Assembly: GCA_963720565.1 (NCBI GenBank)
Contig: CAVRFW010000009.1
Span: 416,001 to 480,000 of the forward strand
DNA length: 64,000 bases
Source of the DNA: Candidatus Bathyarchaeota archaeon
GTDB lineage: Archaea > Thermoproteota > Bathyarchaeia > Bathyarchaeales > Bathycorpusculaceae
Reading direction: 5' to 3'
The notes under the pieces are model-generated. The model worked only from the letters and a program-made list of their open reading frames with translations, did no database searches and was not told the DNA's origin. A program made the position numbers and the translations under genes. This document shows, piece after piece, positions 25,621 to 41,089 of the stretch (position 1 is the first letter of the stretch; every line of letters starts with the position of its first letter).

Positions 25621-26547
25621 CTATTCTTTTATGTAGGGTTTGTAATCGCTAGGAGGCGTGCGCTTTCTGGCGAACACCGCCACGACAATTATGGTGAGAA
25701 CATACGGGAGTGTAAGGATGATTTGAGATGGAAGCAACGCTACCGATTGAAGTCTCATCTGCAAGGCATCTGCAAAGCCGAAGAGGAGACTTGCTCCCAG
25801 TGCTCCAATTGGTGTCCATCCTCCCAGAATCATGGCAGCAAGTGCAATAAAACCTCGGCCTCCTGTCATTCCATTGACAAAGAGGCTTAGGTGACCCAGT
25901 GAGAGAAAGGCTCCACCAAGTCCAGCTAGCATGCCGCTGAGCACGACACACAGGTATTTTGTTTTGTATACGTCTACTCCGGTTGTGTCAGCTGCTGCTG
26001 GGTGTTCGCCCACGGCTCTTATTCTCAATCCCATTGGCGTCTTAAACAGAAGGATGTAGGAGAGTATGACCACTATAATTGATATGTAAACCAATGGAGT
26101 TTGGTTTCCAATGATTTCACCCAGAAAGGGTATGTCTTTCAACAGAGGAATCGAGATTGCTTCAAGTCCTTGTACGCTTTGAGATGCGCCTCTTGACCCC
26201 CATATTGCCTGACATAAGTATCCGGTGCCGCCAAGGGCTAATAGGTTTATTCCTGTTCCGCTGACGATTTGGTTTCCCGCGAATTTCACTGTTAGTAATG
26301 CATGGAGATATCCAAGGAGGCCACCAGCGAGCACGCTTGCTATTACTCCAAGCCATGGGTTGCCTGTGGCAAACGTTGCGAGGACACCTGAGAAGGCTCC
26401 GGTTAGCATCATTCCTTCTAGAGCTATGTTTACGATTCCTGCTCTTTCTGAGAATATCCCGCCGATTGACGTGAAAACGAGCGGCGTTGCCATTCTCAGG
26501 GCTGCTGCAAAGAGTCCGGCGTTGATTATGTCGACAATTTCAACCAT
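25621..26547 (-). CDS. Nucleoside/sugar ABC permease (NupC-like)
   Basis: SERAGIVNIALEG, RAVGEHP, GRGFIALAA. Confidence 0.92.
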   Translation of the reverse strand: MVEIVDIINAGLFAAALRMATPLVFTSIGGIFSERAGIVNIALEGMMLTGAFSGVLATFATGNPWLGVIASVLAGGLLGYLHALLTVKFAGNQIVSGTGINLLALGGTGYLCQAIWGSRGASQSVQGLEAISIPLLKDIPFLGEIIGNQTPLVYISIIVVILSYILLFKTPMGLRIRAVGEHPAAADTTGVDVYKTKYLCVVLSGMLAGLGGAFLSLGHLSLFVNGMTGGRGFIALAAMILGGWTPIGALGASLLFGFADALQMRLQSVALLPSQIILTLPYVLTIIVVAVFARKRTPPSDYKPYIKE

Positions 26548-27632
26548 TTAAAACCTCCTTTTTTCTTGACATATTCGAAGATTTTGGGTGCTGCGACGAA
26601 GAGCACTACCAGCGCCTGTAATACGTTTATTATGTCTAGCGGTACACCTGTGGATATGTTCATGCTTATGCCGCCGCTTCTTATGGCTCCGAACAGAATT
26701 GCTGCTATTATGGAGCCTAAGGGGTTTAGTCCGCCAATCAGCGCAACGGCTAGTCCGTCCCACCCGTAACCGGGTGAGAAACCATCGATGAATCGTCGGT
26801 GAACGCCGAGTATTTCTCCTGCTCCCCCGACGCCGGCTATTGCGCCACTGATTACGAGGGCGAGTATCAGTCCTCTTTTTGTGCTTATTCCAGCGTTTTC
26901 GGCAGCTGCTGGGTTTAGGCCTATGGCTCTAATTTCGTAGCCTATTGTTGTTTTTTCGAGCAAGTAGACTGTTGCTATTGCTGCGGCGATGGATAGGATG
27001 AATGCTGCAGAGAGTTGCGTTACGGGGAGGAGTCGTGGGAGTTCTGCTGAAGTTGCGATGGGAATGGTTTGAGAAACCCAGCCTGGTGCTTTGAGAGGAT
27101 AGTTCACGAAGTAACTGGTGACGTACAAGGCTACATAGCTTGACATCATGGTTGTGATGACTTCGTGGGCTCCGAGTTTTGCCTTCAAGATTGCTGGGAT
27201 GAATCCCCATATTGCTCCTCCGAGGATTCCTGCTAGCAGGGCTAAAGGTAAATGTATGAAAACTGGTAGTCCGTTTAGAGAAACTCCGACGACTGCGGCA
27301 AAGAATCCTCCTATTATTAGTTGGCCTTCAGCTCCGAGGTTGAAGAGTCCACATTTGAATGCCAGGAGAAATGCAAGAGCAGTGAACAGTATTGGGGTTG
27401 CTTGTGTCAGAGTTTGTCCGATTCCATAGATGTCGCCGAACGCTCCGACAAGCATTGTGCCATACGCTTCAAGAGGAGAGTAACCTGTAGCAGCCAAAAC
27501 TATTGCCCCTATTAGAAAAGCTCCTATGACTGCTATAATTTGGGGAATGGAGTCTCTTAGTGAGGTTATTAATTTTAGCCGTGCCTTCTCAAGGATTTGT
27601 CTGGCCTTTTGTTTGATATTGTCTTCAGTCAT
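26526..27632 (-). CDS. Nucleoside/sugar ABC permease (NupB-like)
   Basis: GLFNLGAEGQ, HEVITTMM, GYGWDGLAVAL. Confidence 0.92.
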   Translation of the reverse strand: MTEDNIKQKARQILEKARLKLITSLRDSIPQIIAVIGAFLIGAIVLAATGYSPLEAYGTMLVGAFGDIYGIGQTLTQATPILFTALAFLLAFKCGLFNLGAEGQLIIGGFFAAVVGVSLNGLPVFIHLPLALLAGILGGAIWGFIPAILKAKLGAHEVITTMMSSYVALYVTSYFVNYPLKAPGWVSQTIPIATSAELPRLLPVTQLSAAFILSIAAAIATVYLLEKTTIGYEIRAIGLNPAAAENAGISTKRGLILALVISGAIAGVGGAGEILGVHRRFIDGFSPGYGWDGLAVALIGGLNPLGSIIAAILFGAIRSGGISMNISTGVPLDIINVLQALVVLFVAAPKIFEYVKKKGGFKWLKLST

Positions 27633-29142
27633 TCGCTGCACCTGTCATAAGAAGTCCTATTTCAAGTTCGTTTGTTTTGCTGTGTTCTCTAATAGCAACG
27701 ATTTTTCCTTCGTAGATTACCGCGATTCTGTCGCTCAGTGCTAGGACTTCGTCGAGGTCTGCGGATATCAGTAGAATTGCACAACCTTTGTCTCGCATTT
27801 CTATTAGTTTTCTGCGTACGTATTCTGCTGCTCCGATGTCCAGTCCTCTTGTGGGTTGTGAGGCGATTATGAATTTTGGTTGTCTGCTAAACTCCCTTGC
27901 TACCACCACTCTTTGCTGTGTTCCACCTGACAGATGTCTTACCGGGGTTTCTTTAGTTGGGGTCTGAATTGAATATTCTTGGATTAGTTCCTGCGCGAGT
28001 TCGGATTCTTTCTCAAGGTTTAGTTTGTAGAATTTTTCTGCAAATGGAGGTTGATCTTGTCGACCTAGAATCAAGTTGTCGGAGACGGAGAAATCTAGGA
28101 CCAGTCCTGTTTTCTGTCTGTCTTCAGGGATTATGGAAAAGCCCTTTTTATTCTTTCGTGAACAGATGCATTCGTGATTGGTTTTCCGTTTAGGAGTATT
28201 TTCCCTTCGTCGAGTTTTCTCAATCCCATCAGGACTTCAATTAGCTCAGATTGTCCGTTTCCTTCGATTCCTGCCATTCCAAGGATTTCAGATTCATGAA
28301 CTTCGAAAGTGACTGATTTTAAACCAAGCATCTTGCGTTTGTCGAAGGCTTTGAGTCCTTCAGCTTGCAAAACCACTTTTTCCTGACGAAAAGGGTTTTG
28401 CAGGGGGGACAACGGGAATTTCTCGCCCTACCATCATTTTGGCTAGTTCTTCCATGTCTATGTTTTCCTTGTTTACGGTTCCAGAAATTCTCCCCCTTTT
28501 CAACACTGTAATTCTGTCACTAATTGCGCAAACCTCTTTCAGTTTGTGGGAGATGAATACCACGGATTTTCCCTGTTGCTTGAGTGCCGCAATTGCCTTG
28601 AATAGTCCTACGACTTCTTGCGGCGACAAAACCGATGTAGGTTCATCTAGAATCAGAAACTCTGCTCTTCTGAAGAGTGCTTTCAGAATCTCCACTCTCT
28701 GCTGTACTCCCACAGGAAGAGTGTTGACAACGGCCTTAGGGTCAACTTCCAAACCATATTTCCTGGAAAGCTCGGTTACATCTTCGTTGGCTTTTTCAGA
28801 GTCCAACCAGAACCTATATTTTTCGGGCTCACTGCCTAAAACTATGTTCTCAGCCACCGTTAAGGACGGAACCAGCATGAAGTGCTGATGCACCATTCCT
28901 ATCCCAAGGCTTATGGCCTTTGCAGGGTTTTCAATTTTTGCTTCTTTTCCCTTGACGAAAATCTTTCCTTGGTCTGGTTTGTACAGTCCGTAAAGAATGC
29001 TCATCAGAACAGTCTTTCCGGCACCGTTCTCTCCAAGTAAGCTATGAACCTCGCCTTCTTTAACGTCGAAATCTATTCCATCATTTGCCAAAGTGCCCGA
29101 AAAAGACTTGGTAATACCCACCATTTTGATGGCGGAGCTCAT
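27625..29142 (-). CDS. Nucleoside/sugar ABC ATP-binding protein (double NBD), two frameshifts near 28400 and 28130
   Basis: GENGAGKT, QQRVEILKAL, GIEGNGQSE, LSGGTQQR, SQPTRGLDIG spread over three frames. Confidence 0.9.
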
Positions 29143-29179
29143 AAAAAAAAAGAGGAGAGTAACTTTAGTTAAATCTTTC

Positions 29180-30217
29180 CTATGTGTATCCTGAAGGCAC
29201 GGTGATTGTTCCTGCTACGATTGCAGCATTGGCGTCAGTTAGTTTTGTCACTACGTTTTCTGGCAACGCTGTGTAGGTGAAATCGAAAGTTTCTTCCCAG
29301 AAACTCTCTTCGTCTGGTAGCCTACTGCACCCAGTCCATTTCTCCGCTAGCCCTCCGCTATAGATTTTTCCGCCGACGAATTTGCCTTCAATTGCGTCCT
29401 GTATCATCTCGTACACTGCCACGTCCACTCTCTTGGTCGCGCTTGCTATTATTTCAGGGTATAGATAGTCTTGGCATGAGTCAACGCCGAAACCCATTTT
29501 TCCGTTCTCATGAGCTGCTTCAAGTGCTCCGAGTCCGCTTTTTCCAGCGGCTGCAAAAACGCCGTCCGCTCCCAATCCAAATAAAGATACGGTAAGTTCT
29601 TTTCCTCTTGTTGGGTCACCCCAACCTCCAACGAAAACTGGATCAAGGACCGTTGCACTTGGGTTAGCCCACTCAACGCCCGCTTTGTAGCCTACATAGA
29701 AGTCTCTGATTAAGGGTATGTCCATTCCTCCGACGAACCCTACTTTATTGGTCTGGGTGAACATTCCAGCAACTACGCCGGTGAGGAAAGAGCCTTCATT
29801 TGCTTTGAAAGTCAATGATGCTACATTAGGCAAGTCGACTACCATGTCAACGATGGCGAAGTTTTGGTTTGGATAGGCTTGGGCTGTTATATTAAGTGCG
29901 TCTGCCTGGTCGAAGCCGATACAAACGATTAGCGCGTATTCTCCAGTTTTTGCAAAGTTGGTTTGGAAGCCTTCATATTCTGATATGGCTTCTGGTTCAG
30001 CGTAGTCGAATTCTATTCCTAGTTCTTCTTTGGCGTGCATTGCACCTGCATAGGCGATGTCATTGAAGGATTTGTCGCCTAGACCGCCGGTTCCCAGGAT
30101 TATGCCTATTTTGTTTTGGGTGGGAGTGGCTGGCTTGTAGAAAAATGCGAACCATGCTGCTGCTACGATTATGACTATCAGTATTGCTGCGAGTATTCCT
30201 GCATACATCTTTTTCAT
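29180..30217 (-). CDS. BMP family (PnrA-like) nucleoside-binding protein
   Basis: GGLGDKSFN, EGSFL, GFVGGMDIP, GVDS, KRVD; N-terminal TM anchor. Confidence 0.92.
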   Translation of the reverse strand: MKKMYAGILAAILIVIIVAAAWFAFFYKPATPTQNKIGIILGTGGLGDKSFNDIAYAGAMHAKEELGIEFDYAEPEAISEYEGFQTNFAKTGEYALIVCIGFDQADALNITAQAYPNQNFAIVDMVVDLPNVASLTFKANEGSFLTGVVAGMFTQTNKVGFVGGMDIPLIRDFYVGYKAGVEWANPSATVLDPVFVGGWGDPTRGKELTVSLFGLGADGVFAAAGKSGLGALEAAHENGKMGFGVDSCQDYLYPEIIASATKRVDVAVYEMIQDAIEGKFVGGKIYSGGLAEKWTGCSRLPDEESFWEETFDFTYTALPENVVTKLTDANAAIVAGTITVPSGYT

Positions 30218-30315
30218 TGAAAACCCCCTCAAGCTCATATTGTTTGAACTGCTTTTAAGATTTTTCAGTTTTCCTTAACTATCTGCGAAAAAATGGATGA
30301 GGCTTTTGTATGCGT

Positions 30316-31808: not shown

Positions 31809-33195
31809 TTATGAGAGTTTGATGTGCATGGCTCTCAGCGCGTAGGCTGCCGAGGTCTTTACGGCTGAGATACCGTATGTCCCGCCTCTACGCATCATCT
31901 TTATAACATATCCTGGACGCAGGTAGAATTCTTGATATGCCTTGTAGCGGATTTCCGCCAGTCTCTTCATACTCAGCCAGGGCGTTTCGAAAGTCGGTCC
32001 GGCAGTGTCGTACTTATCGAAATCCGTGACTCTGAGCCAACCGTTCTTCTTGACTTGCTCGTACATCGGAGTTCCAGGGTATGGCGTTGCAACGTAGAAG
32101 CCGACGTCGTCAGGGTTTAGTTCTTTGACAAAGTCGATTGTTTCTCGTGCTGTTTGTTCGGTTTCTCCTGGAAAACCCAGTACCGTGTTTGCTATCGTCA
32201 TTAATCCGACTTCGTGTGCAGTCTTGTATGCCTAACCGTGTTTGATTCAGTTTTATGCTTTTGTTCATGGCACCTAGAATGGTTTCTGAGCCTGATTCCA
32301 CTCCCAGCCAAACGGCTATGCAGCCGGCGTCGCGCATGGTTTTGAGGAGTTCGCGGTCAACCATGTCTACGCGCGTGCCGCAATCCCAGGTTATTTCGAG
32401 TTTTCTTGTGTGCAGTTCTTCGCAGATTTTCAAGACGCGGTCGCGGTTCACTGTGAAGGCGTCATCGTAGAATGTGACCTGACTTATGCCATACTTGTTG
32501 TGGACCATTTCCATTTCGTCGACGACGTTTTTGGGGCTGCGCATGCGGTATCCTCTACCGAACATACGGACAGTACTGCAGAAGTCACACCAGTATACGC
32601 AACCTCGACTTGTGATTAGGGGAAACAATACCTTGCCCATTCGTTTCAACGTTTCAAGTGGCAGAAGGTGATGGGCGGGAAATGGCAAAGAATCTAAGTC
32701 TTCTAGGAAGGGTCTGTCTGGGTTTCTCGTGATTTTGCCTTCTCTGCTTCGAAACGTGATTCCTAAGACATTGCTGAAGCTGGTTTTTGATTGGAGTTTG
32801 TCGAGGAGTTCGATGAAGGTCGCTTCGCCTTCTCTGCGTACAACAATATCCAAACTTGGGTACTCGCCAAGGGCGTTTTCGTCCCAGAAGGAACCGTGTG
32901 ATCCACCAAGCATCGTGACGGCTTGGGGATGGACCTGTTTAGCTATAGCGACTAGCTGCATGGCTGATTTGTAAAGAAGAGTTGTGGCTGTGACTCCGAC
33001 TACGTCTGAGGGGGTTTGTTCAATGCGGCTGCGGAAGGCTTCATAGCTGAGTTTTTCTGCTTGGCAGTCGATGACCGTGACTTCGTGGCCTTCTCTTTCT
33101 GCAACCGCACCCAAATAAGCAATGCCGAGAGGAATGAATGGTGGATGAGAATGTACGCTCGGTGGATAAGGAGGATTAACTAAGGTAATTTTCAT
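31809..33195 (-). CDS. B12-binding domain radical SAM protein (class B-like), frameshift near 32230
   Basis: PLGIAYL, REGE, SRGCVYWCDFC, GVESGS, GFPGET, TPYPGT. Confidence 0.92.
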
Positions 33196-33354
33196 GCTGA
33201 TGTATGCCCTTCTGCAGGGTCATTCTACACCTAAATGCAATATATTCATTTCTTGTTTCGGCGAGTAAAGTTCTCCGATTTGGAGTGATAACATGTTAAT
33301 AATTGCAATGGTGCATGTATTAAGGAAAAGAGCCTTGTTCTAGGAAAACTAAAA

Positions 33355-33526
33355 TGCCCAAGTTGAGTCTAAGCCCGAATGTCTTCAACTTAGTTCAGCC
33401 AGCTGTTAACCGGTCCATCAGAGGTCTGTCCCGTTTGATGTTATCGCCCTAAACTGACTTGAACGGTCGGTCAATGTTGCAACTGTTCTATGTTGAGGCA
33501 TTCCAGCCTGCTTCTCAACTTGGGCA
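33355..33526 (-). ncRNA. Candidate structured ncRNA (172 nt, rod with terminal branched head)
   Basis: Perfect 13-bp terminal inverted repeat TGCCCAAGTTGAG/CTCAACTTGGGCA, nested internal helices, TTTATTA 24 nt upstream on the minus strand, U-rich tail. Confidence 0.6.
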
Positions 33527-33782
33527 AACTATTACTGGTGACTTTTAACCTAATAAATTTGTTTTACAGGAAAAATTAAGGTTGAAAAACATTTTTGGAG
33601 GCTTTTCAGATAAATAAGTCAAGAAGTGCATGAACACAGAAGCTTGTGATCAACAAACAATGGTTACTATTTAAGGTAGCAAATGTTTCCTGCAACACAT
33701 TTACGATGGATTCGGGCTGTTTTGGGCTTATATATCCTGAAGCAATAGTCATATGGGCTGAAGGAAGTGCAATAATCCAGTC

Positions 33783-34496
33783 ATGATGAACGGAAGACTA
33801 AGGTTCGAGGCAGATTTGGCCACTTTGATGAATCTGCTCACTGTTGACATGAATGATGAGGGCAAAGGCAAGCTCAATGAACTCAAAGACTGGCTTCTAA
33901 AACTCCAAAAAGAGAATGTAGTAAAAATCAACCATTCAGTAATGGAACTCGTCTGTGCAAAATACCTCATCTTGAAAGGCTATGATGTTCAGTTGGAGTA
34001 CGTTCTAAATGATTTACTAACTTGTGACTTGTTCTCAATCAAAGGCTATGGAAATCTTATCGTAGAAATCGAGACGGGGTTCATACCACCAGAGAACGCG
34101 CTCAATCCCATAGCCTATACTTCGGCGCGCTTGGCCAGCAAAATAATTAGGTACAGTAGCTTCGCCGGAAAGTTCGCGGTTGGTGTTCCTCCCCATTATG
34201 TTTTGCCTTTCCCTAAAGCTCTGGCAAGGCTTCCAAGGAATAGAACGCAGGAGGACATTGAATTCGTCAAGAGACTGTGTGACATCTACTATCGCAACCC
34301 CCCAGTTACTGAGGACGAAATAAGGAACGCCCGCATTCACGAAGTCTACATCATAGATGTTGACCGCGGAAAGATTCAGGCAGTCGACCCGGGATCTTAC
34401 ATGAAAAGAGCTATCCAAAAAGAGTTCGTTTTCCCCTACCAAAGCGAGGCAACACGCAAGTCCAGAAAAACCGTTACATTGCTGGATTTTCAATAG
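33783..34496 (+). CDS. Conserved archaeal hypothetical protein, possible PD-(D/E)XK-like fold
   Basis: INHSVMEL, CDL...IVEIETGFIPP, SKIIRYS. Confidence 0.75.
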   Translation: MMNGRLRFEADLATLMNLLTVDMNDEGKGKLNELKDWLLKLQKENVVKINHSVMELVCAKYLILKGYDVQLEYVLNDLLTCDLFSIKGYGNLIVEIETGFIPPENALNPIAYTSARLASKIIRYSSFAGKFAVGVPPHYVLPFPKALARLPRNRTQEDIEFVKRLCDIYYRNPPVTEDEIRNARIHEVYIIDVDRGKIQAVDPGSYMKRAIQKEFVFPYQSEATRKSRKTVTLLDFQ

Positions 34497-37354: not shown

Positions 37355-37581
37355 TCATTTCACCTTTTTGTTTTAGCATTGGGTTAAGCTTCTTTTTAGT
37401 CTAACTTACACTTTTTTGTCTATTATCTTAAGATCGACCACCTTGTCTTTTAATTTTCCAATTAAAGCCAATTTCGAGTTTTTCAGGCGTGTATAGCTCT
37501 ACGTATATACGTGCATATTTCCGACATATTAACAACGTATAAGATTGTTCTCCGCAGTCTTTCTCGTACGGAGGATTTAAT

Positions 37582-38245
37582 TTGTCAGAAAGATTCGCGA
37601 AAAAATGGGAAACTAAGAAGAGAGGACCAAGCTTTCACTGACCGCATCAAGGATGCTGTGAAACCGCCGGGACCACTGAAGCCACGCCTCGACTTCGCTG
37701 TCAGACGCATAGAACTTCAGGTGCAGAAGCTCGACCAGGCCACAGACAGGTTCACGCAACGCGACAAGGCAATATTTGCAAGAATCGTTGACGCCTATAC
37801 AAAGCACGACAGCGCCCGCGCAAATGTTTTCGCCAACGAACTATCAGAAGTTCGCAAGATGGAACGCCTAATCATAAACGCCAGACTTGCCCTCGAGCAA
37901 ATAGTGTTAAGGTTACGAACTGTCTCCGAACTAGGAGATGTTGTATCAACCCTCGGACCAGCTGTGGGAGTTCTTCGATCCGTAAGATCAGGGCTAACAA
38001 GCGTGTTCCCAGAAGCAGAGAGCGAACTAGGCGAAATCGGCAACATGCTAAGCGGAATAATGCTAGAAGCAGGCCAAGGCTCAGGAATGACGCTGAACTT
38101 TGACACAGTAAACGAAGACGCAGCAAAGATTCTCAACGAAGCAGCAACAGTAGCTGAACAGAAGATAAAAGACAAATTCCCAGAATTGCCCCCAGGCATG
38201 CCTGCGGCAACTGCGGAAACAGAGAAAACAACGGAAAGCTTCTAA
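37582..38245 (+). CDS. ESCRT-III/Snf7 (CdvB1/B2-like), frameshift near 37615
   Basis: TTG start after GGAGG (MSERFAKKWE); ANELSEVRK, ALEQIVLRLRT; C-terminal FPELPP (MIM2-like). Confidence 0.88.
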
Positions 38246-38260
38246 ACTGGAGGATGAAAA

Positions 38261-38977
38261 ATGTCATCAAACTCCAATCTTTTTCTTTCGATAGGAAAAC
38301 CAATAAAAGACGAGTACGGTCGAATAATAGGCAAAGTTGCCTCTTTTGCATTGACACCCAATGGAAAATTTGACGCTGCTTTCATCGAATTTAACGACGG
38401 ACAATTTTCGAAACAATCCTTGGACCACTTCAAATTTAATGGTACCGAAGTAACGTACATCTCGAAGATCAAATCTGAAGCGAACGTTCTCTGCGACCAG
38501 ATACCACTAATTTGGCGCAAAGACCAAGCCCTCAGAGATCTCGCAGAAAAGAAGAAAATTTCGCCAGACATCTACCAGGAACTCCACAACAGCTTCGAAG
38601 GCGTATCAAATCAACTAAAGAAAGATGCACAAGTACTCATGGATGAACTTGCCGTCGAAATCGCACGATGCGACGAAGCAATGAAATCTCTAAGCTACGC
38701 AATCGTCAATCTTGAACTAGAACACGAAATCGGACAGATCAACGAAGAAAACTACAAATCAGCTTTTGCGATGATACAAGAAAACCTCAAACGAATTAAC
38801 GCGGAAAAAAGCGACAACGAACAAGCCAAGAGTAAACTATCCAGCGTGTTGCTAGGCGATTCCTCAAAGCTTGACCTAAAACCCAAAACACCCCTTTTAA
38901 ACCCAAACCAAACATCTGAACTGCCAGAGCCACCAGTAGTAGTCTACGTGAAAGAAGTCGGAAAAGCTGGAATTTAG
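38261..38977 (+). CDS. cdvA: CdvA-like cell division protein
   Basis: N-terminal PRC barrel (IGKPIKDEYGRIIG), coiled coil, IGQINEENY, C-terminal ELPEPPVVVYVK strand. Confidence 0.85.
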   Translation: MSSNSNLFLSIGKPIKDEYGRIIGKVASFALTPNGKFDAAFIEFNDGQFSKQSLDHFKFNGTEVTYISKIKSEANVLCDQIPLIWRKDQALRDLAEKKKISPDIYQELHNSFEGVSNQLKKDAQVLMDELAVEIARCDEAMKSLSYAIVNLELEHEIGQINEENYKSAFAMIQENLKRINAEKSDNEQAKSKLSSVLLGDSSKLDLKPKTPLLNPNQTSELPEPPVVVYVKEVGKAGI

Positions 38978-39013
38978 CCTCATTAGGCGAAGCTGTGGGC
39001 GGAGGGAACAAAG

Positions 39014-39907
39014 ATAAGGCTAACAAACTCACCCCCTCCCCCGATACGTGATGTTGCAGCGAAATCCATTTACACACTGAGAACCCAGCAGAACAAGCTC
39101 GAACAAGCAAGCTATAGACTTAGAGAAAGAGACCGGATTCTTTTTGAAAGTTGCATGGGTGCTCTCAAGAAGAACAACAAAGAGCGCGCAGCAATGTGCG
39201 CCAACGAAATCGCTGAAGTGCGTAAACTCATAAAATTTCTCTACAATGTACAATTAGCAATAGAACGTGTAGTTCTGAGACTAGAGACAATAAAGGAACT
39301 CAGCGACATCGTTATCGACCTAAAACCTGCTCTGAAGCTTCTCCAAAACGTTTCGCAAGAACTATTCCAAGTCCTGCCCGATGTCTCGACAGAACTAAAC
39401 ACTGTAAATGAAGTAATACACGATACCCTCTATGCAACAAAAATCAACGCAGATGAATCCCTCATACCTGTTGGCAGAAAAACGGAAGCCGGTGAAGAAA
39501 TCCTAAAGGAAGTCACCACTTTCATAGAACAAAAACTAACAGAAACTCTGCCTGAACCACCCACAGCAAGTGTTCAATCGGAGAAAGCGAACCCAGTAAA
39601 ACAGCTTGTCGCCCTAACCGCCAGCTGCTCCCAAACAATCGGAAGCAAAAACATAGATGAAATAGGCATCGACTCCTCAACAACCCTTTTTTCATATAAA
39701 AAATCCGAGATTAAGGAAATCTCGTTGAAAGTTGAGAAGCCATCACTAGAAGATGTGCTCCTCGAATACGTCAGAAAGAGCAACGGCGAAATTGACTTAA
39801 GCCATTGTTCAGACGAGTTGCAGACCTCAAACGAAGAAATTGAAAAAGCCCTTGAAAGCTTAGGAAGTAAGGGCAAAATAAAAATCGAATTAAAATCTCC
39901 CGAATAA
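39014..39907 (+). CDS. cdvB: ESCRT-III CdvB with C-terminal winged helix, probable ATA start
   Basis: Snf7 core (ANEIAEVRK, AIERVVLRLET), LPEPP, C-terminal wH (LLEYVRKSNGEID...KGKIKI); the frame is open upstream to ATA at 39014 after GGAGGG. Confidence 0.85.
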   Translation: MRLTNSPPPPIRDVAAKSIYTLRTQQNKLEQASYRLRERDRILFESCMGALKKNNKERAAMCANEIAEVRKLIKFLYNVQLAIERVVLRLETIKELSDIVIDLKPALKLLQNVSQELFQVLPDVSTELNTVNEVIHDTLYATKINADESLIPVGRKTEAGEEILKEVTTFIEQKLTETLPEPPTASVQSEKANPVKQLVALTASCSQTIGSKNIDEIGIDSSTTLFSYKKSEIKEISLKVEKPSLEDVLLEYVRKSNGEIDLSHCSDELQTSNEEIEKALESLGSKGKIKIELKSPE

Positions 39908-39922
39908 ATGGTGCAATAATTA

Positions 39923-41089
39923 ATGAGTGCTTCACAAGAACTTGAAAAAGCCGCAACGGCTTACGCTTTGGATGCCGTTCGGTTGGACAAACAAGGCGCA
40001 AGAGGCAGAGCTATAACTCTGTATCAGAAGGCAATCGAGAGTCTTTTACAACTTGTCCAACTCTATCCAGAATATGGTCTGAATAAAGTCTATGTTCAAA
40101 GAGCAATTGCCTACCAAGAGCGAATAAAAGTTCTGCAAGGCTCCGTTTCTGCTCACGAAATGCAGATGGAATCAAACAACGGCGGAGAAGGCGGAGAAAC
40201 AGCCGCCGGAACTGGAAAACCGCCTACCGAACTTGTTGTGACGGAAAAGCCCAAAGTCAACTGGGAAGAAGTAGTCGGCTTGGATATGGCAAAGAAAGCC
40301 GTAAAAGAAGCCATTGTCTACCCCGTTCAAAGACCCGACCTGTTTCCGTTGGGCTGGCCAAGAGGCATCTTGCTTTTTGGTCCACCAGGCTGCGGAAAAA
40401 CGTTGCTGGCAGCCGCGGTCGCCACAGAAATAGACGCCAACTTCTATTCCATTGACGCCGCATCAATCATGTCCAAATGGCTCGGCGAGGCTGAACAGAA
40501 TGTCGCCAAACTTTTCGGTTCCGCCAGGAAGTCCTCGATCGAAGGCAAAGCAGCAATTGTGTTCGTCGACGAGCTAGATTCTCTGATGGGGCAGCATTCG
40601 AACGAGGTAGGAGGCGAAATTCGCGTCCGCAACCAATTCCTCAAAGAAATGGATGGCATCGTAGACAAGGGCAAAAACCTTCATGTGTACGTCATCGGCG
40701 CCACAAACAAACCGTGGGATCTGGATTGGGCTTTCATACGCAGATTCCAAAAAAGAATCCTGGTTCCACTGCCTGACCATCACACGCGTCTAATGATGCT
40801 CAAGCTATACACTAGCAACCTACAGATCGATAACAATGTGGACCTGCATGAACTGGCGCGACTTTCTGAAGGCTTCTCAGGAAGCGACATAAGAGACGTT
40901 TGCCAGTCAGCTCAGCTCAAACTAATTGGCGAATTCTTCGAATCAGGCAAAGCCATGGATAAAGAGGCAAAACCACGGTTACTAACCATGACAGATTTCA
41001 GACAAATCTTTGAAGACCGCAAGCCAAGCGTGTCACTGGACATGTTGTCTTCGTACACCAGATGGTTTGAGGCTTTCAAAGCGCTGTAA
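39923..41089 (+). CDS. cdvC: Vps4-like AAA+ ATPase with MIT domain (CdvC)
   Basis: MIT domain; GPPGCGKT, SKWLGEAE, VDELD, ATNKPW, RRFQKRI, SGSDI, FKAL end. Confidence 0.95.
   Translation: MSASQELEKAATAYALDAVRLDKQGARGRAITLYQKAIESLLQLVQLYPEYGLNKVYVQRAIAYQERIKVLQGSVSAHEMQMESNNGGEGGETAAGTGKPPTELVVTEKPKVNWEEVVGLDMAKKAVKEAIVYPVQRPDLFPLGWPRGILLFGPPGCGKTLLAAAVATEIDANFYSIDAASIMSKWLGEAEQNVAKLFGSARKSSIEGKAAIVFVDELDSLMGQHSNEVGGEIRVRNQFLKEMDGIVDKGKNLHVYVIGATNKPWDLDWAFIRRFQKRILVPLPDHHTRLMMLKLYTSNLQIDNNVDLHELARLSEGFSGSDIRDVCQSAQLKLIGEFFESGKAMDKEAKPRLLTMTDFRQIFEDRKPSVSLDMLSSYTRWFEAFKAL

Follow-up and report, generated by a model that had tools for sequence, protein, structure and literature searches.

A 172-nt archaeal element as the precursor of a circular RNA encoded beside a predicted nuclease gene

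The window, i.e. the whole 64,000-nt stretch of bathyarchaeal DNA analysed, contains an intergenic gap at positions 33196–33782, flanked by a radical SAM gene on the minus strand and the gene of a 237-residue protein on the plus strand. A sequence-only reading had estimated this gap at about 590 bp, which agrees with the measured 587 bp, and had proposed that it harbours an independently transcribed, structured RNA of some 172 nt. This raises the question of what form the RNA takes, how it is made, and what it may do beside its neighbour.

Processing motif and product of the element

The perfect 13-bp closing helix, the TATA-like TTTATTA box 24 nt before the 5' end of the 172-nt element, and the minus-strand T-run 3' of it were all confirmed in the sequence (Table 1), and the nested stem helices are present in the minimum-energy fold. 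Folding of both strands returned z-scores of –6.36 (minus) and –5.35 (plus), with 0/200 shuffles as good, and the minus strand of the element folds at –66 kcal/mol. The initial doubt about the strand was settled in favour of the minus strand because the TATA box and the T-run are conserved there and the junction found in RNA data fits the minus-strand splice register, the contigs themselves being unstranded. A TTTATA-type box occurs at the same distance in 9/9 aligned homologues, and TATA-like runs were found in most of 37. A scan for sigma-70 promoters, which is inapplicable to archaea, found nothing. The proposed Y-shaped head with two hairpins was abandoned, as it pairs in 67.3% of cells across 58 homologues, a value matched by 145/500 shuffles; the same region drawn as a continuous rod pairs in 92.4% of cells in 58 homologues, with 0/500 shuffles as high.

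Searches against Rfam with both gathering and E-value thresholds gave zero matches for the element, and blastn, nhmmer and model R1 each located one copy in the 2.09-Mb genome. As anticipated, the element is not an SRP RNA, tRNA or RNase P RNA: it matched no such family, and canonical SRP RNA and RNase P RNA genes were found elsewhere in the genome. The flanking B12-binding radical SAM gene (window 31809–33195, minus strand) is split into two frames, probably by an assembly error, since the DNA-like run X18 is one base shorter at 32231.

Just inside the closing helix, the 5' strand reads helix-AAGC-AGG-CU and the 3' strand GG-GCUU-AGA-helix, so that a 4-bp central helix is followed on either strand, on its 3' side, by a 3-nt bulge. 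This makes up the bulge-helix-bulge (BHB) form recognized by the archaeal splicing endonuclease, according to the portions available of PMC6379350 and PMC4090602. The flanking helices are the covarying 13-bp outer helix and a 2-bp helix, followed by a 1-nt bulge and the continuing stem. The AGGCU/GGCUU helix of the sequence-only reading is a real pairing option but only one of two registers, the other being the BHB. The energy model makes the BHB register 7 kcal/mol weaker than the slipped one (–59 versus –66 kcal/mol); across 58 homologues, the BHB register holds in 98.3% of cells, and the competing register pairs the free middle bulge base in only 23/32 homologues.

Homologues numbered 37, of which 13 were obtained through the DNA search and the remainder beside the neighbouring gene. 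All four central pairs are kept in 36/37, while the middle base of the 5' bulge is unconstrained (G 19, A 7, U 6, C 5). The 3' strand of the central helix is constant, although its invariance in these 37 is partly built in because the search motifs were refined after the first members had been seen, and the 5' strand changes only within wobble. In the 32 homologues with single-arm interiors, the central helix is paired in 127/128 cells (99.2%; 99.6% on 58 sequences) and two-sided changes occur at 11/11 pairs of the outer helix. This conservation pattern is explained by the product, as the departing bulge bases vary and the bases of the junction loop form a tetraloop. A structure-only scan of 80 independent loci returned 28 strong matches, 27 of which were the GCUU-bearing BHB motif of the element. 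A loosely set initial BHB scan returned mainly noise; a stricter scan of the element's own genome left 20 TATA-plus-BHB candidates in 4.18 Mb of sequence scanned, among which its outer helix scored best (33 versus 26 for the next). Such scans can miss members, since the element's own circle, with z = –2.1 against base shuffles, is lost under the stricter filter.

As for the enzymes, the genome encodes two EndA subunits (two PF01974 genes) and RtcB (PF01139), and every computationally checkable feature of an EndA substrate (bulges, flanking helices, circular register, EndA and RtcB genes) is present. The RtcB gene (G000:C5:338032-339343, L088) is broken near its start in the assembly. With cleavage after the second base of each bulge, a register that follows the tRNA 37/38 geometry in the part of PMC4090602 consulted, the predicted circle comprises 139 nt, from 33507 to 33369, and its junction closes a c(UUAG)g tetraloop. 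The exons would ligate to a 33-nt hairpin, whose sequence varies among homologues. The circle carries no open reading frame longer than 29 codons in the sense direction, the longest stop-free stretch being 42 codons antisense, and it lacks coding potential.

The junction was predicted before the RNA data were looked at. Part of the stretch is contained in 20 sequencing runs, 12 of them recorded as RNA, and eight were examined (X1–X5, X7, X8 and X18); one run containing the element could be the source of the assembly. The junction was present in contigs of five of the eight (X1, X2, X3, X7 and X8), from five studies. In X1, a 169-nt contig corresponded to the 139-nt circle plus a 30-nt overlap, with 0 mismatches. 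X2 and X3 held contigs across the 33507–33369 junction, two of them without mismatch (depths 12.6 and 215.7), and X3 further contained three diverged homologues with the identical join. In X8 and X7, the junction was found as loose ends in 14 and 17 contigs, respectively, with a summed depth above 100,000 over the circle only; contigs yield neither strand nor true level, and this depth is inflated by summed strains and probably by rolling reverse transcription. X7 is labelled as probably DNA, yet it is a metatranscriptomic library, with cover limited to the circle. X5 also covered the circle only, with a contig beginning at 33369 and the join absent among the matches listed, and X4 held a single linear contig (33357–33506). 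The DNA-like X18 displayed an even depth of 1–5 across genes and gap and read linearly through both ends, with no junction. Absent cover of the flanking genes in the RNA runs does not equate to silence of those genes, and the junction position has a 2-nt register ambiguity because AG is repeated on both sides. One X8 contig stops at 33355 with adapter sequence, and trace depth extends past 33515. In X7, one contig joins back by 50 bases, from 33509 to 33460, at a depth of 25.8, in keeping with a minor smaller circle or a template switch.

The 172-nt element is the precursor of a circular RNA. The claim of an independently transcribed, structured RNA was upheld, as the RNA is conserved, expressed and outside Rfam; its size had to be revised, the 172-nt rod being the predicted precursor and the 139-nt circle the product in the RNA data. 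EndA and RtcB are very probably the enzymes that cut and seal the circle, and the circle rather than the 33-nt exon hairpin is in all likelihood the functional product.

Table 1. Coordinates in the window of the RNA gene, its processing signals and the divergent gene
Feature	Positions	Strand	Basis
Promoter-like element: A-rich BRE-like run and TATA box TTTATTA (33557–33551)	33551–33568	–	Sequence
Predicted linear precursor RNA, 172 nt	33355–33526	–	Fold z = –6.36; few RNA contigs
5' arm of outer 13-bp processing helix (disposable exon)	33514–33526	–	Two-sided changes at all 11 outer pairs, 32 diverse homologues
BHB 5' half: central strand AAGC 33513–33510, bulge AGG 33509–33507; predicted cut 33508/33507	33507–33513	–	RRGY in 36/37 homologues; junction contigs
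Mature circular RNA, 139 nt, closed rod with c(UUAG)g tetraloop over the junction	33369–33507	–	Junction contigs; circular fold
Apex motif GAU-NRY-H-UC-AA at far end of rod, subtype A	33434–33445	–	G, A, U, U, C, A, A invariant in 58/58
BHB 3' half: GCUU 33374–33371, bulge AGA 33370–33368; predicted cut 33369/33368	33368–33374	–	GCUU in 37/37; junction contigs
3' arm of outer processing helix (disposable exon)	33355–33367	–	Pairs with 33514–33526
T-rich run, archaeal terminator-like	33345–33354	–	Sequence; T-runs after most homologues
Divergent partner gene, 237 residues, unnamed predicted PD-(D/E)xK-fold nuclease	33783–34496	+	Structure model; E72, D82, E95, E97 and K120 invariant in 69 aligned homologues

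Distribution and classes of the RNA

Both the RNA gene and its TATA box are conserved in Bathyarchaeia as well as in other Thermoproteota. A DNA search recovered homologues in 12/60 relatives, and model R1 detected the RNA in 35/151 genomes of the class and in four further families of the phylum. A pattern scan yielded 69 metagenome loci, all apparently genomic, and 40 of the 55 distinct ones are divergent to the same nuclease gene. Viral contigs contained no carriers, with three pattern matches devoid of the 5' half, nothing detected by R1 and no relatives of the nuclease.

Predicted circles span 77–204 nt, with interiors that are rods, two-armed or branched, some members being nearly perfect 77-nt rods; all are closed and highly paired. 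Subtype A, to which the RNA of the window belongs, is a rod with an invariant apex and without the pseudoknot pattern of subtype B. The latter has one or two arms, in which a loop–bulge pseudoknot covaries (89.9% paired, seven two-sided changes, 0/500 shuffles; 18 arms). Some genomes carry two to four RNA copies, with both subtypes represented, differing outer helices and locations mostly away from the nuclease gene; among them are G052 (L108, L112, L116, L117), G339 (L102, L114; both subtypes), G337 (L104, L113) and G440. Four copies are also present in the genome to which the nuclease of locus L027 belongs, recorded as Ca. Bathyarchaeum tardum, a cultured enrichment. The cap at the junction varies from c(UUCG)g (L041, L081, L317) to c(UUUG)g (L102, L319 and three more loci) and, accompanied by a two-sided change in the central helix, c(UAAG)g (L325); one homologue, L423, is predicted to give UUAA. 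UUCG belongs to the YNMG tetraloop motif, as described in the section of PMC2346598 available.

A second class comprises TATA-preceded, branched BHB RNAs of 155–202 nt with predicted c(GAAA)g or c(GAGA)g closure. They are found in other families, mostly downstream of and convergent to the same nuclease gene, in families f31 (L042:2184-2399, L045, L083, L084, L207–L210, L213, L215) and f41 (L055, L218–L222) and at further loci (L241, L242, L328, L330, L331). Rfam returned no match for this class, and the UUNG-capped and GNRA-capped classes share no interior sequence. In family f32, a nearly perfect, GC-rich rod of 153 nt (L059:784-967, minus strand), flanked by a BHB and provided with a TATA box, lies directly downstream of the nuclease gene and is possibly a third class. 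Across 20 nuclease loci and seven other-member loci, Rfam gave nothing apart from a Dictyoglomi-1 match on this rod, whose 36.5 bits against a gathering threshold of 150 were taken as generic hairpin similarity.

No description of the RNA family was found in the literature searched, although supplementary lists of circles could contain its sequences unrecognized. The parts available of the archaeal circle surveys in Sulfolobus and Haloferax (PMC3326292, PMC7714728) and of a viroid-like circle survey (10.1101/2022.07.19.500677) contained nothing matching.

The neighbouring nuclease gene and its association with the RNA

The structure model of the divergent 237-residue protein has a pLDDT of 91.2 and displays a PD-(D/E)xK core, and residue E55 together with the five residues listed in Table 1 is present in 80/80 close homologues. 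The protein belongs to no Pfam family and has no PADLOC match; a PDB sequence search identified no solved relative, and nothing significant came from Foldseek (best E 0.003). In the fold comparison, the best matches were SPO1766 (Z 9.6), XisH (9.3), AF1548 (8.3) and a Pyrococcus abyssi repair endonuclease (7.2), which are DNA-repair or excision proteins going by their titles; the list further includes CdiA-CT, which cuts RNA as a tRNase, and the nuclease domains of Can2/Card1. The nearest named Atlas cluster, PDDEXK_14 at 0.85, is a lead only. With SPO1766 (3dnx), XisH (2okf/2inb), the P. abyssi endonuclease (2vld) and Can2, the protein shares the core fold (Z 6.9–9.6 over about 96–133 residues). 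It differs from them in sequence (12–14% identity), in having an extra N-terminal helical hairpin, and in the replacement of E-x-K by E-x-E, with lysine K120 on the following helix. No RNA partner is known for these four proteins. The fold and the intact acidic and lysine residues point to a predicted nuclease of the PD-(D/E)xK superfamily.

The gene was found in 128/301 genomes of the phylum, single-copy in nearly all, and its closest relatives are, by title, from Bathyarchaeia. Its further neighbours vary by lineage and include several genes of DNA metabolism (GIY-YIG, DNA ligase, FEN1, Nre and PCNA) as well as Csm6 (L017, L018, L019, L024, L034, L041, L079, L200, L205, L218).

The RNA was present in 40 of the 151 class genomes sampled, 38 of which encode the nuclease, a co-occurrence that such counts overstate because related genomes are not independent; the two RNA-bearing genomes lacking the nuclease are 85% and 89% complete. 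With R1 alone, the sample contained 35 RNA genomes, 33 of them nuclease-positive, against 86 genomes with the nuclease, and the RNA was detected in 2/65 nuclease-negative ones. By coordinates, RNA and nuclease are adjacent in 24/33 genomes and apart in 9/33. Model R2 gave five strong matches in this sample, 5/5 in nuclease-positive genomes, four of them adjacent and none with class-1 RNA; one of these genomes is the only nuclease bearer among 18 of its family. The same model detected 11/12 genomes of family f31 versus 0/40 nuclease-negative genomes of the phylum. The link between RNA and nuclease persists through changes of side, strand and RNA sequence, while the other neighbours change.

In the opposite direction, R1 and R2 detected no RNA in 48 of the 86 nuclease-bearing class genomes, 35 of these 48 belonging to one family, f62; three of the 48 (G046, G350 and G388) do have an RNA missed by the models. 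Among the 80 closest nuclease loci, 47 have no adjacent RNA, with all six active-site residues intact. Family f62 showed no BHB RNA within about 2 kb of the nuclease at 13 loci, and in 20 wide loci from other families a BHB RNA was found within 8 kb in 0/20. In 20 narrower loci, none passed in 9/20, three of these nine being later found by R2. The nuclease-bearing genome G263, from the ammonia-oxidizer family, yielded no candidate RNA gene over its whole length; it contains long perfect inverted repeats (L299:19270-19430 and L301:7390-7615). It seems that the RNA needs the nuclease more than the reverse, a dependence that speaks against an antitoxin and is compatible with either a regulator or a substrate. 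On balance, circle and nuclease probably act together.

Possible roles of the circle

The biogenesis route is known, and the combination of RNA family and nuclease matches no system found in the literature searched. Thermoproteus tenax offers the nearest precedent with its circular permuted SRP RNA, which, in the part of PMC4731332 available, is produced from a stand-alone gene as a functional circle by the tRNA splicing endonuclease. Both traits are probably shared by the element, which differs in having no SRP match, in the presence of a normal SRP RNA elsewhere in the genome, and in its occurrence beside a nuclease gene in many lineages. Archaeal 23S and 16S pre-rRNAs form circles through a BHB in the processing stem, EndA cleavage and RtcB ligation (PMC12918454, PMC7714728), and the 23S circle of Methanosarcina acetivorans bears a GNRA tetraloop cap at the BHB junction (PMC12918454), as far as the excerpts of these articles go. 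The second-class RNAs resemble the latter in their cap, which is predicted only; the family differs from pre-rRNA circles, as those excerpts describe them, in its size of 77–204 nt, its own promoter and in not being rRNA. Excised archaeal tRNA introns, which include a C/D guide nested in the tRNA-Trp intron according to the available text of PMC4090602, have the splice motif and register in common with the element, whose flanks are not tRNA halves and would instead ligate to the variable hairpin. The tRNA-intron reading was rejected, given that no tRNA was called at the element and that the exons form that 33-nt hairpin. Readings as K-turn, H/ACA, C/D or Y-RNA were likewise dropped, as no conserved box pattern fitted on inspection by eye.

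The best explanation overall, with a rough probability of 0.45, is that the 139-nt rod made by EndA and RtcB binds and regulates the neighbouring predicted nuclease. A stand-alone gene with its own promoter would give the 172-nt precursor, which EndA would cut at the BHB and RtcB would seal. The product would be a closed rod that offers no ends to exonucleases and has a stable cap at the scar, and it may bind the nuclease as a duplex mimic, keeping it inactive until displacement. That the circle is such a stable, endless mimic, which occupies and holds the enzyme until displaced, is a tentative proposal, based on size and interior differing among members while closure and pairing are kept; this combination speaks more for a generic duplex mimic than for a guide. 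On the scale of the phylum, chances are about even that the circles are part of a new kind of archaeal RNP system, in which dedicated genes would make them by tRNA splicing, in two tetraloop-capped classes of unlike sequence, and in which they would become very abundant in sediment archaea and control or programme a conserved PD-(D/E)xK nuclease.

The dependence of the RNA on the nuclease could also be met if the circle were a substrate, which the enzyme would open or destroy, e.g. so that nucleotides or a bound factor are set free once growth restarts; elsewhere, the nuclease would then act on further RNAs that are circular or structured. An RNA without the nuclease is a rare exception (38/40 have it), whereas the nuclease often occurs without the RNA, an RNA-cutting relative, CdiA-CT, is in the fold list, and no feature of the circle is more conserved than its junction tetraloop. 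We nonetheless regard this reading as rather unlikely, as the two classes differ in their caps (UUNG and GNRA) without common interior sequence, the titles of the best fold matches indicate proteins of DNA repair or excision, and the circle accumulates intact. An antitoxin role, in which the circle would neutralize a toxic nuclease in a system akin to type III toxin–antitoxin or abortive infection, might be suggested by a structured RNA beside a nuclease with an intact active site, by the fold similarity to Can2/Card1 and by one locus adjoining a Csm6 gene. Type III antitoxins consist of RNA repeats in tandem, transcribed together with a known RNase toxin and upstream of it, and a genuine type III system was rejected, as the RNA here is a single divergent gene rather than a tandem repeat array and the protein belongs to no Pfam or PADLOC family. 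Moreover, the intact nuclease is common without the RNA and, in contrast to patchy defence genes, occurs as a single copy in nearly all members of the family in several lineages, which renders the role improbable. The covarying loop–bulge pseudoknot of subtype B and tandem two-armed forms could point to an RNA-programmed nuclease complex for which the circle is guide or scaffold and which might assemble via loop–bulge pairing; yet the circles lack a long single-stranded variable segment, the window's subtype A has no pseudoknot pattern, and the longest match of the circle elsewhere in its own genome is 18 nt (E 0.004), so we consider this quite improbable.

Two further readings make the nuclease incidental. 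Bacterial 6S RNA is linear, has a central bubble and binds the sigma-70 holoenzyme, and the likeness to it noted at the outset holds superficially for size, rod shape and abundance; it fails in that the product is circular, Rfam 6S is unmatched, the 58-sequence consensus has only small internal loops instead of a large central bubble, and nearly perfect 77-nt rods exist. A decoy of this kind, which would bind the RNA polymerase of archaea or some other double-strand-binding protein when growth is slow and whose nuclease link would be historical, would accommodate the very high depth in sediment RNA and the extra copies far from the nuclease gene, but it does not account for the RNA lying next to the same gene in two opposite arrangements and is unlikely. 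A selfish element, be it a MITE, as the sequence-only reading had alternatively suggested, or a viroid-like replicon with a genomic copy, would be consistent with the 13-bp terminal inverted repeat, the rod-shaped circle and the two to four copies in a few genomes. The sequence of that repeat varies with covariation across lineages, however, and the MITE was discarded in view of the single copy here, the conserved promoter and synteny, and the expression. A viroid-like or Obelisk replicon was excluded in view of a chromosomal gene with a promoter, no ribozyme by Rfam and no sizeable open reading frame. With the two main variant bases of the RNA runs recurring in the DNA-like X18 and no viral carriers, a selfish origin is highly improbable.

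The archaeal BHB circles known so far comprise introns that are discarded, rRNAs and rRNA intermediates, and a single SRP RNA of rearranged order. In the present case, the gene appears to exist for the sake of the circle, at whose junction selection appears to maintain a stable tetraloop. Strong accumulation of the circle is seen in a group that ranks among the commonest sediment archaea, and an uncharacterized, widespread protein of Thermoproteota gains a testable partner. The element further provides a minimal template from nature for the production of circular RNA, and the circle is a stable metatranscriptome marker that viroid-mining pipelines could mistake for a replicon.

Elsewhere in the window, inspection of the sequence revealed an ABC transporter cluster at 25621–30238 (minus strand), with a binding protein, an ATPase and two permeases, the ATPase gene being in three pieces (27625–29142), probably owing to an assembly frameshift. 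On the other side of the gap, a Cdv/ESCRT cell-division cluster at 37511–41089 (plus strand) comprises an ESCRT-III-like gene (identified by inspection), CdvA, an Snf7 gene and a Vps4-type AAA ATPase.
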